This document shows, one piece after another, positions 44,365-47,300 of a DNA stretch of 53,052 nt. The notes under the pieces were generated by a model that saw only the letters and a program-made list of their open reading frames with translations, was not told where the DNA came from and searched no databases. The first letter of the stretch is position 1. Every line of letters begins with the position of its first letter. A program made the position numbers and the translations under genes. The DNA comes from a bacterium. GTDB lineage: Bacteria; Patescibacteriota; Saccharimonadia; Saccharimonadales; SZUA-47. The stretch covers positions 1 to 53,052 of the forward strand of contig RFTN01000005.1 of NCBI GenBank assembly GCA_009923445.1. The letters run 5' to 3'.

Positions 44365-47300
44365 CGTTCCTGTCATTTTGCCATTTAGGCAGACAGAGTT
44401 GGCGCAGAGGCCAACCTACCCCACCTTTCGGTGTATTTATCTAAAATACTGTTTATTAGATTTGTAAAAGTCATATACATCAATATGGTCCAGTTGATTT
44501 TCTTTTGCAAACTTATATGTTCCTTTGCTTAACCGGTGAAGTGAGGCCTCACCGGTGACCGGAATAATAGTCTACTATTATTTTATTAGACTTTGTCTTA
44601 TTTTCGTGAGGACCAATTGCTGTTTTTAAATCAATTTCAGTATTTTAAGGGACTAGACTATATCTTAAGCAAAGAAGCAAACACTTGCATTCTTTACCCA
44701 CTTCCATGTAGTCGTTGAACCTTTTCCCGCAATGGCAGTGGTACAAGCCACATTTTTTACCATTGGTAGGGAACTTGGCTGCGGATTGCCCAATCCCTAT
44801 CATTTTTACCATTGGCGAAGCCCAACTCCTCCGAGTCGAGCATCGGCGACAAAAGTCGCGTACGGCTATTAACCGTGGTCTTCTTACATATTTCTACATA
44901 AGAATGGTAGATAGGGCTCTAAGGGGTTTCCCGCAATTTGAAAGTGTCGCAAGTCACAACCTGTGACTCACTAGCAACTGTATTATCAACCGATGGATAA
45001 AACAAAGGTGGTGTTGCATCGGTTAAGGAATACTAACTGTTTTCCATCAAACTATCCTTATCGTTTGATGCAGGTTGCTTTTCAGGCCTCACATTTAAGC
45101 CAATCACCATAGTGTTTGTCAATTTGTTGACCACCGATTTCGATGTACACTTCTTGAATCAACATATGGCCCACATTTTCGACCCAAGCGCAAGTGCTTG
45201 AGCCATTGTCCAAAGCAGGGAGTTTGACCTGGAGATAGGTCTTGTGGATCAAGTCACCATTTCTGGAGACCGTGCATGAAACTTTACGCTTTCTGAGCAA
45301 GTTTGCCCAGGTTGACTATGTCAACGTACCCCACCTTTCGGTGTATTTACTTAGGGAATAGACTATATCTTAAGCAAAGAAGCGAACACTTCGCATTCTT
45401 CACCCATCACCGTTTAGTCGTTGAACCTTTTCCCGCAACGCTATTAAACGTTGGTAGGGAACTTGGCTGCGGATTGTCCAATTCTAAGCATTTTTACCAT
45501 TGGCGAAGCCCAACTCTCACGAGCAAGTGAATCGGCAACCAAAGTCGCGTACGGCCATTAACCGTGGTCTTCCTAAATGTTTCCAAATAGGAATGGTAGC
45601 TTAGACTCTAAGGAGATCCCCGCAATTTGATGATGTCGCAATTAAGAAGTCGTTTACAAGCATCGTATGTCTTGCTTAGCTTAGCTTAGCTTCTTCATAC
45701 TTACATTGCTTGCATCGTGGGTTGTATGATGAACCTTTTTATTAAACCCAAGCCATTTGTTTGTTTGTATTTTGTGCACTCTCTACTCATTTACTCATTT
45801 ACTCACACATAAAACAATGCTTTTAAATCAACTCTTAATCACTAGCAACTGTATTATAAACCGATGGATAAAACAAGGGTGGTGCTGAACATCGGTTAAG
45901 GAATACTAACTGTTTTCCATCAAACTATCCTTATCGTTTGATGCAGGTTGCTTTTCACGGCATTAAAGTTTACCGAAATCTACCGTTCCGTTGAAGGTTT
46001 GTTCAATGGATTCGATAGAAAAGTTGGTGTGTCTACGATAGACAACTTTGAAGAAAGTAATTTGAGGATTACCTGTACTTTTCCTCTACCTTATCTTTCG
46101 ACAAGGATTAGACTATATCTTATGAAGAATCTAGAACAAATTCTCCCGAAAACCATTTAGTCGTTGAACCTTCTTCTTTAAAACAACTTAAATTCCTTTT
46201 GGCAATAGATGCATCAACTGATTCATTTCTTACAACCGGAAACAAATTAGACCAATTCCAATAGCGATACTTTTCAGATTCGACGGCCAAATCAAACTCC
46301 GAAACAACGTGACCAATGTCCCAAAACGTACCGTAATTGTCCCAATTCATTTCCGCTGTAAAATTGAACTGCAAATATTCCCTTAAATAATGAATGTTAC
46401 ATCCAATGTAATCCAATGTGTTTGTTTGTGTGCTAATTGATCGTCTTATCTTGGCAGCCAACGATTTTTTCAACCTGTAATGAACATTCTTTTTTCGTTG
46501 TCCTGACAATTTGCCTAAATAGCACGCTCTGCAAACTGTCCTTTTATACAACTGAATACAGTCAGCTGAACTTGCCTTGCATACACAACATACACCAATG
46601 GATACCATTTTCCCTTTTCGTATACAGGAATTTAAATCTTTTAAAGAAACTTGGCTGCTGATTGCCCATTGTTACATCTCATTCATTGTTACCAAAGGCC
46701 GCCTTAGCAGACGTCCCTGTGACAAATACCACTACCCAAGTTGTGTCTTGGCCAGATTTACATCACTGTAAATCCTTGGTAGAATGAGCTTTAGGGGTTC
46801 CCAGCAATTTGATTTTCTCACCAGGGTTTTCCCTGATTAACGTCTGTGGTGCTCGTGTAAGCGTCCACTAAGGGCTTTATGAACATCTTATTTTTTCGAT
46901 GCTCCCCGACATTTTTCTACCCTACAGGCTTTTAAGGTAAATATCTTGCGAATCGACCCCATAATATTTCTACTATGGACAGAGTACACCTTAGGAATCT
47001 TCAAGTTTGGCTAGAACTATCACTAAATCCCGATTGCCGTCTACTCGTTGAACCTTTATCTTACATCTGCCTTTAACGATATAAGACACTTGGCTGCGGA
47101 TTGTCCAATCTTTAACGTTTTTACCATGCCACCGGTCATTACCCTGTGGTATTGTCAAGTATTACTACTGAACAAGTGGTAGTTAAAGCTCTAAGGAGGT
47201 TCCCGCAATTTGACAATCTTGCAAAAAGGGTCTAGGCCCCTTTCACTAGCGAGTTATATAAATTGAATCAGATTCAATTCGTATATTTACACTGTTTACC

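Follow-up and report, generated by a model that had tools for sequence, protein, structure and literature searches.

The capsid-gene intron and its open reading frame

The window, which is the whole stretch of 53,052 nt that was analysed, contains an NCLDV major capsid protein (MCP) gene. Close to its 5' end, this gene is interrupted by an intron of 857 nt in which an ORF of 162 codons is located. The features of the intron and of its flanking exons are the following:

46935..46948, minus strand: 14-nt micro-exon 5' of the intron, identified from the sequence; its last 6 nt (46940-46935) are the exon strand of P1
46078..46934, minus strand: group I intron of 857 nt in the NCLDV major capsid protein gene, directly behind codon 18 (between ..QDIYL and TGNP..)
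46917..46928, minus strand: internal guide sequence; its P1 part, 46922-46917, pairs with the 5' exon, its P10 part, 46928-46923, with the 3' exon
46797..46817, minus strand: P3 5' strand (46817-46811) and J3/4-P4 5' strand, from the Rfam alignment
46640..46660, minus strand: P4 3' strand, J-region and P6 5' strand (46648-46640); P6 closes the ORF-containing loop
46627..46638, minus strand: promoter-like A/T motif of the ATTTAAATT type in the P6 loop, 29 nt upstream of the ATG of the ORF
46120..46608, minus strand: 162-aa ORF in the P6 loop, with one CxxC..CxxC zinc-finger unit and a predicted diverged HNH/His-Me-like domain
46120..46182, minus strand: dual-use stretch, codons F143-S162 and stop, from sequence, Rfam, and the comparison of codons and pairing
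46089..46122, minus strand: J8/7 (46122-46116), P7 3' strand (46115-46111) and P9 hairpin (46106-46089)
45976..46077, minus strand: 3' exon of the capsid gene, from its translation and tblastn matches to all 80 related loci

Pairing was found for P1, P10, P3, P6, P7, P8, and P9 of the capsid intron. In P1, positions 46940-46935 pair with 46922-46917, as in group I introns, and the 5' exon ends with U46935, which forms a G.U pair with the guide sequence at the splice site. In P10, positions 46928-46923 pair with 46077-46072, so that the 3' exon starts at 46077; the last base of the intron is the omega G, G46078. The intron ends at 46934 and 46078, as proposed in the original prediction, are thus borne out by both pairings and by the terminal G. 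The same elements are preserved in the family described below, with P1 paired in 53 of 53 members at five of six positions (the exception being the outermost pair), all P10 pairs kept in 53 of 53 sequences, and P3 paired in 53 of 53. The Rfam model RF00028 is split by the ORF and therefore matches the ribozyme as two halves, the 3' half with 45.5 bits and the 5' half with 20.8 bits, neither of which reaches the gathering score of 50. Judged from the pairings and the Rfam matches, the capsid-gene intron is a group I intron and probably self-splicing. A core-like stretch inside the ORF (46580-46552), with which the local Rfam alignment closes, was treated as a chance match.

When the micro-exons are joined, the canonical N-terminus of the MCP is obtained; a longer upstream exon containing VDSQ had been considered and is wrong, since the micro-exon reading yields the canonical N-terminus instead. 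The last capsid exon matches Capsid_NCLDV at 1.1e-56. Four further introns, all devoid of an ORF, were identified in the same capsid gene, giving five group I introns in all. About 255 nt past the capsid stop codon, a gene for a T5orf172 protein, a free-standing nuclease gene, is present.

Overlap of the open reading frame with the ribozyme core

The ORF extends from 46608 to 46120 on the minus strand and codes for 162 amino acids, in agreement with the original prediction. Sequence and Rfam alignment also upheld the claim that it is intron-encoded, starting in the P6 loop, running through the ribozyme core, and ending in J8/7. The 18-nt stretch comprising J6/7, P7, and P3' (46170-46153) is translated in frame as GSTTKW, and the stop codon (46122-46120) is the UAA which opens the J8/7 element (46122-46111), both as read before. 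The overlap had been estimated to be about 17 codons; its existence stands, while its size is slightly larger, with 20 sense codons and the stop when the P6 3' strand is included (46182-46120), or 16 codons and the stop when counted from GSTTKW onward. The dual-use stretch covers the P6 3' strand (46182-46174), J6/7, the P7 5' strand (46162-46158), the P3 3' strand (46154-46148), the P8 hairpin (46146-46124), and the opening 3 nt of J8/7.

A constraint on both functions of this stretch, as had been proposed, was found in the comparison of 59 distinct orthologous ORFs. Codons 143-154 show no synonymous variation, whereas other invariant residues of the ORF use two to four codons. In P8, which covaries while lying in coding sequence, pairing is kept through compensatory changes. 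The P7 stretch is in frame in 80 of 80 IMG/VR loci. The stop codon differs in position among 77 orthologous ORFs: 35 use the UAA of J8/7, 40 end within the P8 loop, and two end inside J8/7-P7. With its 3' end in core sequence and a stop position that varies among related introns, the ORF is an example of core creep. In the AlphaFold2 (AF2) model of the protein, the core-encoded tail (residues about 151-162) has pLDDT values of 51-41.

A family of introns at one capsid site

For the 162-aa protein, 155 homologues were identified at E <= 0.01, the best non-self match having an E value of 5e-40, and 51 columns are invariant among 16 aligned sequences. The domain formed by residues about 37-131 is shared by 11,359 representative proteins at E <= 0.001. 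The genomic context of the homologues was taken from 80 fetched IMG/VR loci, in which the 5' and 3' junctions were located by splice-site patterns. In all 80, the same intron is present at the same capsid site and is directly followed by the 3' exon of the capsid gene, and both junctions are identical in all 76 loci in which the two splice sites could be located. If the ORF had arisen by chance in the A/T-rich loop of an intron and gave rise to no protein product, this would agree with the lack of a usable match in direct searches of the profile libraries; however, the homologues, the invariant columns, the widely shared domain, and the orthologous ORFs at one site in 80 loci refute this reading, which retains a negligible probability. 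The original prediction had considered it should both homology and conservation in related introns be absent, and both were found.

The family introns have a length of 1021-1247 nt, while the intron in the window is shorter. The uninterrupted, intron-less capsid site was identified in at least 119 stretches. One fixed site in a conserved gene, with intron-less alleles present besides, is as expected for a homing gene. Identity of the ORFs correlates weakly with identity of the capsid exons (Spearman 0.25), a comparison which is uninformative because the N-terminal region of the capsid protein is too conserved, and which fits mobility and vertical descent alike. The ORF family is a "hypothetical protein" which is widespread in metagenomes of giant viruses, unannotated and without a Pfam model, and in a literature search no paper was found describing it.

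Upstream of the ORF in the window, the promoter-like motif inside the P6 loop may act as a promoter. Each of the 7-mers TTAAATT and ATTTAAA precedes 11 of the 39 ORFs on the contig in comparison to 0.83 expected, in a small sample of these 39 ORFs from one contig. The Mimiviridae early-promoter octamer AAAATTGA was not found upstream of the ORF in the window and is not enriched on the present contig (4 sites); among the related loci, it was identified at -33 to -42 in four only.

Assignment of the protein family

The original prediction had cautiously pointed to an HNH-type nuclease. For the family, this call is supported, since the superfamily consensus contains the pattern D-H ... N ... N..K; for the copy in the window its scope has to be narrowed, because the Asp beside the catalytic His and other parts of the motif are missing and nuclease activity is doubtful. 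For P0039, a full-length relative, a match to phrog_1035, "endonuclease VII", was obtained at 3.9e-11, and relatives from phages have been deposited as HNH endonucleases. Distant family members gave values of 0.045 with PF01844 and 0.0049 with GmrSD_C, both below the cut-off. The search of the 162-aa protein against the Pfam, NCBIfam, and PHROG profiles gave no usable match, and its only profile match, to DUF1619_N with an E value of 0.029, was taken as noise from the Cys pattern. Neither a NUMOD nor an AP2 module, both named beforehand as candidates for a Pfam check, was found. The profile search against PDB sequences identified matches to zinc fingers only (the N-termini of Stc1, Hpy99I, and PacI), apart from a match to a Mur ligase which was rejected as spurious.

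Two AF2 models were obtained with mean pLDDT values of 89.9, for the 162-aa protein, and 90.4. Searches with these two confident models by Foldseek and VIA revealed no clear structural match. With regard to a beta-beta-alpha-Me fold, the best matches to nucleases were weak (CAD and Cap5 with Z 4.1 each, the HNH domain of Cas9 with Z 3.6-3.9, PacI with Z 3.4), with E >= 0.1 for the nuclease matches in Foldseek, and across the structure searches CAD, Cap5, Cas9-HNH, BrxU, PacI, and Hpy99I were repeatedly returned as weak matches. The top rows of VIA, with Z 5.6-6.2, were an axonemal protein and the C-terminal domain of a tRNA-modifying dehydratase. From the sequence pattern, the labels of relatives, and the repeated weak structural matches, the ORF family most likely codes for zinc-finger and HNH/His-Me endonucleases.

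Reduced state of the copy in the window

The copy in the window is the shortest and most diverged of the family, with 43-50% identity to every relative, whereas the relatives have a median identity of 76% to one another. It keeps 42 of 60 conserved columns (70%) and matches the majority at 2 of 37 variable columns; by this measure, purifying selection on the fold is still apparent. His100, the catalytic His, and Asn121 and Pro124 of the N-L-x-P turn are kept and are located in invariant or nearly invariant columns. The Asp of the DH motif, present in 57 of 58 other distinct ORFs (97%), is replaced by Gly99. The NSSKK block containing the distal N..K is replaced, with an Asn remaining nearby. 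Also absent are one zinc-finger unit, two residues behind the His, and about 80 residues at the N-terminus. In DH-type HNH enzymes, like Cas9 and T4 endonuclease VII, the Asp of DH holds the metal. The pair of metal ligands formed by this Asp and the distal Asn of N..K is thus not present in the protein from the window, which probably cuts weakly or not at all, as far as its residues indicate. Because the metal-binding Asp is a Gly, "endonuclease" may be a misnomer for the present function of this copy.

It is rather unlikely, though to be taken seriously, that the 162-aa protein has kept the full activity of a homing endonuclease, in which the loss of the Asp is tolerated, for example, by use of another ligand or a different metal, and in which one zinc-finger unit suffices to bind the target. 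The retention of His100, Asn121, Pro124, and an Asn at the distal position would fit such an enzyme, as would the retained conserved columns, the intact ORF with its promoter-like motif at -29, and the confident model. However, the residue replaced is the one that holds the metal and is nearly universal in the family, further losses concern the two positions behind the His, the block of the distal N..K, and the N-terminus, and the copy is the most diverged member.

The preference for conserved over variable columns could also be explained by a role other than cutting, such as a maturase-like help in folding or splicing of the capsid introns, or a function as a DNA- or RNA-binding regulator, since purifying selection would then act on the fold without the catalytic residues. 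The DH residues are also gone in several short, still open relatives (P0122, P0123, P0124, P0126, and P0129), and the four ORF-less introns of the same gene could be served by such a protein. If this holds true, an HNH-derived intron helper protein would be present in a eukaryotic virus, and the independent short members without the DH residues would be parallel cases. However, the survival of degenerate copies is biased because only open frames enter protein databases, and the same pattern is expected early in the ordinary decay of a homing endonuclease gene; to our knowledge, no HNH-derived group I maturase is known. A role of this kind is considered improbable.

A model for the capsid intron and its gene

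The best explanation of the locus as a whole, which we consider probable, is a site-specific capsid intron carrying a core-creep gene for a zinc-finger and HNH protein, with the copy in the window being reduced. The anatomy of the intron, the protein family, the common insertion site, and the dual constraint are shown by the data; that a promoter is located inside the intron, that the element homes, and that the copy in the window has lost activity is what we infer. An endonuclease gene in the P6 loop of a giant-virus capsid intron would have been extended at its 3' end into the ribozyme. In the capsid pre-mRNA, the shared bases would fold as the catalytic core, resulting in removal of the intron, whereas in a separate, shorter transcript they would be read as the tail of the protein. 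The shorter transcript probably starts at the A/T motif inside the P6 loop and would therefore lack the 5' half of the ribozyme. In a co-infection, the protein of the full-length relatives most likely introduces a cut or a nick into capsid alleles devoid of the intron, upon which repair would copy the intron into the site (homing). The copy in the window is a reduced, fast-evolving version, probably representing a late stage of the homing cycle.

Comparison to known systems

Core creep has been published for group I introns of phages and organelles (Edgell, Chalamcharla and Belfort 2011, PMC3073962; Hausner et al. 2014, PMC3984707). As in these introns, the endonuclease ORF is located in a peripheral loop with its 3' end running into the core, and the varying stop position among the relatives of the capsid intron is in line with the prediction of the model. 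In contrast to the published cases, the present intron resides in the capsid gene of a eukaryotic giant virus, and the overlap, which spans P6', J6/7, P7, P3', P8, and J8/7, is fixed across a large family.

For Acanthamoeba polyphaga mimivirus L425, intron 1 of 1188 bp was identified after codon 18, with a weak group I match and splicing shown from cDNA (Azza et al. 2009, PMC2688009). It is likened to the present family by position and length, since it is located in the major capsid gene after the same codon and its length is within the range of the family, while the intron in the window has only 857 nt. The paper on L425 mentions no intron ORF or endonuclease, whereas the present intron carries one.

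Both the overlap of ORF and core and the capsid intron after codon 18 have thus been published already, and the present case is a further member; the knowledge of how such elements work is unchanged by the copy in the window. The family provides a large natural data set on one stretch of RNA that serves as ribozyme core and as coding sequence, with twelve codons frozen at every position, a coding helix with compensatory changes, and stop codons at differing places. With it, a "hypothetical protein" family of giant-virus metagenomes obtains a name and a probable function. In these viruses, capsid genes serve as phylogenetic markers; an interruption directly behind codon 18 is frequent in them and has to be considered in gene calling.

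In Bodo saltans virus (BsV), the group I introns of the RNA polymerase carry HNH or GIY-YIG ORFs, ORF-less "offspring" introns are present in the same essential gene, and a role in the competition of co-infecting viruses has been proposed (Deeg, Chow and Suttle 2018, PMC5871332). The combination of ORF-bearing and ORF-less introns in one gene of a giant virus is common to both systems; in contrast to BsV, the host gene here is that of the capsid, and an overlap of ORF and core is not described in the paper on BsV.

According to PMC2790892, T4 I-TevIII is a defunct intron endonuclease which is mobilised in trans by mobE. A similar arrangement is present here, with a truncated, probably inactive ORF kept in a functional intron and a nuclease gene nearby, T5orf172, which is likened to mobE by its proximity, while action in trans is described for mobE.

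Like I-HmuI and other HNH intron endonucleases of phages, the present proteins belong to an intron-borne HNH enzyme family. They differ from the I-HmuI type in their N-terminus, which consists of a tandem Stc1/Hpy99I-like zinc finger instead of NUMOD modules, in that no Pfam HNH model reaches threshold, and, for the copy in the window, in the absence of the Asp of DH. In the Atlas, a cluster of structural neighbours was identified in which 83% of the members carry I-HmuI_NUMOD-like, an observation taken as a lead.

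The capsid gene and its introns

The window holds a gene for the major capsid protein of nucleocytoplasmic large DNA viruses (NCLDV) on its minus strand, the last exon of which matches Capsid_NCLDV (1.1e-56) and Capsid_N (4.2e-18). This gene (43503-47866) is interrupted by five group I introns, and only the one at 46934-46078 contains an open reading frame (ORF). Two micro-exons are proposed between the first three introns:

47370-47363, minus strand, micro-exon of 8 nt
46948-46935, minus strand, micro-exon of 14 nt

When joined, the micro-exons give the canonical capsid N-terminus QLVAYGAQDIYLT, and splicing of 46934-46078 is predicted to join QDIYL to the 3' exon, forming the conserved capsid N-terminus.

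In Mimivirus L425, an intron is likewise located after codon 18 of the capsid gene, with 1188 bp and a weak group I match; an ORF in it is not mentioned in that paper (PMC2688009). In Bodo saltans virus, one essential gene contains endonuclease-bearing group I introns alongside sister introns that have no ORF, and a role in competition between viruses was proposed (PMC5871332).

The 1.8-Mb assembly (177 contigs) in which the window is one entire contig was scored as a prokaryote with 98.97% completeness. The window nevertheless contains the NCLDV capsid gene, group I introns and further giant-virus genes, and appears to be giant-virus DNA placed in a prokaryotic bin.

Ribozyme anatomy

Within the capsid gene, Rfam reported four complete group I introns above the gathering score. 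The intron at 46934-46078 was not reported at that score, and in a permissive Rfam search it was found as two halves, split by the long ORF-bearing insertion.

Elements of the intron at 46934-46078 (minus strand; pairings and the last base assigned from the sequence)
From 46810: Rfam 5' half, 20.8 bits, P3-P4-P5-P6
46305-46089: Rfam 3' half, 45.5 bits, J6/7, P7, P3', P8, J8/7 and P9
Last six 5'-exon bases, ending U46935, with 46922-46917: P1, with the usual G.U at the splice site
46928-46923 with 46077-46072 (first six 3'-exon bases): P10, formed by the six bases just upstream of the P1 guide
46817-46811 with 46154-46148: P3
46648-40 with 46182-74: P6
46162-58 with 46115-11: P7
46146-40 with 46130-24: P8
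46106-00 with 46095-89: P9
G46078: last intron base

The P1 and P10 pairings together with the terminal G define the intron as 46934-46078, with a length of 857 nt, and the limits in the original prediction were borne out. A stretch resembling J6/7-P7 (46552-46580, minus strand) was found within the zinc-finger codons of the ORF, where it was used by Rfam to close the local alignment of the 5' half. This resemblance is probably due to chance, but it may also be a remnant of an older core or of a duplication.

Overlap of the ORF with the ribozyme core

The ORF of 162 aa (46608-46120, minus strand) begins within the P6 loop, 32 nt past the 5' strand of P6. Every base from codon 143 on doubles as core RNA:

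F143-E146, P6 3' strand
G147-W152, J6/7 and P7
W152-S154, P3'
G155-S162, P8 hairpin
ORF stop codon, first three bases of J8/7

Thus, the ORF position, its read-through of the core and its end in J8/7 were as predicted. The dual use also stood, but the count of about 17 codons holds only from GSTTKW onward, the full overlap being 20 sense codons and the stop. Overlaps of this kind have been established in some group I introns and were named 'core creep' (PMC3073962, PMC3984707). The window's intron is a further case of this known arrangement; the observation is confirmed and its first interpretation supported.

Among 59 distinct orthologous ORFs, each of codons 143-154 is a single codon, including a rare ACG, with the exception of one GAG at 145. 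Elsewhere in the protein domain, residues that are invariant are encoded by two to four codons (four at G69 and P124, three at I98). It is thus the RNA, and not the protein, that keeps residues 143-154 invariant. In 53 distinct aligned ribozyme cores, P1, P10, P3 and P7 are kept throughout, and P8 varies by compensatory pairs (G-C/A-U; A-U/U-A/C-G), although both of its strands are coding in many members. The frozen codons and the P8 covariation bear out the double constraint on protein and RNA.

In the 77 orthologous ORFs from IMG/VR giant-virus loci, the stop is the UAA of J8/7 in 35; in 40 it falls in the P8 loop, and in two it is placed three codons further on, inside J8/7-P7. A wandering stop is a prediction of the core creep model (PMC3073962). 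The window's protein, as modelled by AF2, has a poorly defined tail past residue 150 (pLDDT 51, then 41), which agrees with a segment gained through read-through and not belonging to the fold.

Expression of the ORF

Reviews describe tight control over the expression of ORFs that extend into the core, by which folding is left undisturbed (PMC3984707). With translation of the eukaryotic type, ribosomes would not reach an ORF deep within an intron of the capsid pre-mRNA, so that an internal promoter would be the simplest route. The ORF transcript would then start inside the P6 loop and, lacking P1 to the P6 5' strand, would be unable to fold as a ribozyme; ribosomes reading P7-P8 on it would thus be harmless.

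On the window contig, 7-mers of the ATTTAAATT-like motif are strongly enriched in the 80 nt before ORF starts (11 of 39, with 0.83 expected). This A/T motif, of the type TTAATTTAA / ATTTAAATT, is mostly located 15-50 nt upstream of ORF starts (for example at 6020, 11550, 26900, 28700, 41320 and 46637) and is a candidate promoter element of this virus; for the intron ORF it is found 29 nt before the ATG, inside the P6 loop. In L005, L025, L063 and L072, the four loci with the capsid exons most similar to the window's, the corresponding place has an exact copy of the Mimiviridae early-promoter octamer AAAATTGA, located from -33 to -42 and overlapping the 5' strand of P6. The octamer is not enriched upstream of ORFs on the window contig. 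Of 52 distinct upstream regions from the other loci, 30 have instead a conserved ACAATATAAA-like motif, in most cases between -29 and -40 (background 0.06 per 110 nt). Shared ancestry and small sample sizes confound all these promoter-motif counts. An internal promoter for the intron ORF is thus suggested as a lead.

The protein family

The window's protein itself gave no match to any Pfam, NCBIfam or PHROG model, while its full-length close relative P0039 matched phrog_1035 'endonuclease VII' (3.9e-11) over nearly the whole length. An exhaustive HMMER search identified 11,359 representative proteins (E <= 0.001) sharing residues ~37-131, with the consensus W-x-I-D-H-I-x-P ... N-x-x-N-L-x-P-L ... 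N-x-x-K. The D-H / N / N layout is that of HNH nucleases. Database entries for phage relatives bear the names 'putative HNH endonuclease' or 'endonuclease VII', and distant members match PF01844 HNH (0.045) and GmrSD_C (0.0049), both below threshold. Consensus, phrog_1035 match and phage annotations support, for the family, the cautious HNH reading made originally.

The N-terminal part of full-length members matched the Stc1 tandem zinc finger in 12 of 16 (best 3.2e-05), and also 2luy. A further match, with Z 5.3 across 42 residues, was to the zinc finger of Hpy99I, a beta-beta-alpha-Me enzyme. For two AF2 models (pLDDT 89.9 and 90.4) fold matches were weak: the recurring nucleases were CAD, Cap5, several Cas9 HNH domains, BrxU, PacI, McrA and Vibrio endonuclease I (Z 2.8-4.1), and Foldseek gave Hpy99I, Cas9 HNH, SspE, ZRANB3 and Gme HNH (E 0.25-3.5). 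Altogether, the family very probably belongs to the HNH/His-Me group.

Two structures outscore every known nuclease as neighbours of the nuclease-like domain: an axonemal doublet-microtubule protein (8j07 chain c2, Z 5.8-6.2) and yeast threonylcarbamoyladenosine dehydratase, in its C-terminal domain (9hmp/9hmo, Z 4.5-5.6).

Homologues and the shared insertion site

A search of 5.8 billion proteins identified 155 homologues (best non-self 5e-40), most of ~245 aa and all unnamed, being deposited as 'hypothetical protein'; a literature search found no publication on this family. An alignment of sixteen sequences has 51 invariant columns, among which F143-S154 form an unbroken run. Encoding loci numbered 269 in the IMG/VR scan, and in the 80 of them compared the P7 stretch is in frame and the capsid 3' exon directly follows the intron in every case. 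Both junctions and the guide sequence are identical in all 76 loci with both intron ends found; their introns have 1021-1247 nt, which makes the window's the shortest. A chance ORF had been considered in the original prediction, marked by absence of nuclease homology and of conservation in related introns. With 155 homologues, the ORF present in all 80 loci fetched and the 'endonuclease VII' match of P0039, sequence comparison shows that it is neither due to chance nor unique to the window.

At least 119 more giant-virus stretches have the target site uninterrupted, in most cases written in different synonymous codons; the exact intron-flanking codons were found at only 5 of 169 uninterrupted sites. 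Since the same site carries the intron in some loci and not in others, intron-plus and intron-minus alleles coexist. In many giant-virus contigs (L122, L124, L130, L140, L149 and others), two to six uninterrupted capsid N-terminal sites occur in tandem at a spacing of ~1.3 kb, suggesting that capsid paralogues form arrays there.

The reduced copy in the window

The sole special feature of the window's copy is its reduced state. The protein is devoid of the first CxxC..CxxC unit (~80 residues), of the two residues (I-P) after the His and of the NSSKK block, the distal N..K part, and it has Gly where the Asp preceding the catalytic His (DH motif) stands in 97% of the other distinct ORFs. The DH residues are also lost in other short members (145-226 aa). 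When shared columns are compared and the RNA-fixed part is left aside, the protein has 43-50% identity with each relative, even with those of L063, L005 and L072, which have the closest capsid exons, whereas the relatives' median among themselves is 76%. A second family copy was not found in the assembly.

The changes are unevenly distributed: of 60 columns with at least 95% conservation in the other sequences, the protein retains 42, but it has the majority residue at only 2 of the 37 variable ones, indicating purifying selection on the fold through most of the divergence. The copy is read as a late stage of the homing cycle, in which the intron would be fixed and functional and the endonuclease weakened or dead. 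That the protein still cuts is rather unlikely, and another role is more improbable still.

A free-standing protein of 597 aa is encoded ~255 nt past the capsid stop (41454-43247, minus strand), with a match to T5orf172 of the GIY-YIG superfamily (3.8e-09) and a weak one to MSV199. By analogy to mobE, which acts for the defunct T4 I-TevIII, it could act in trans on the capsid locus.
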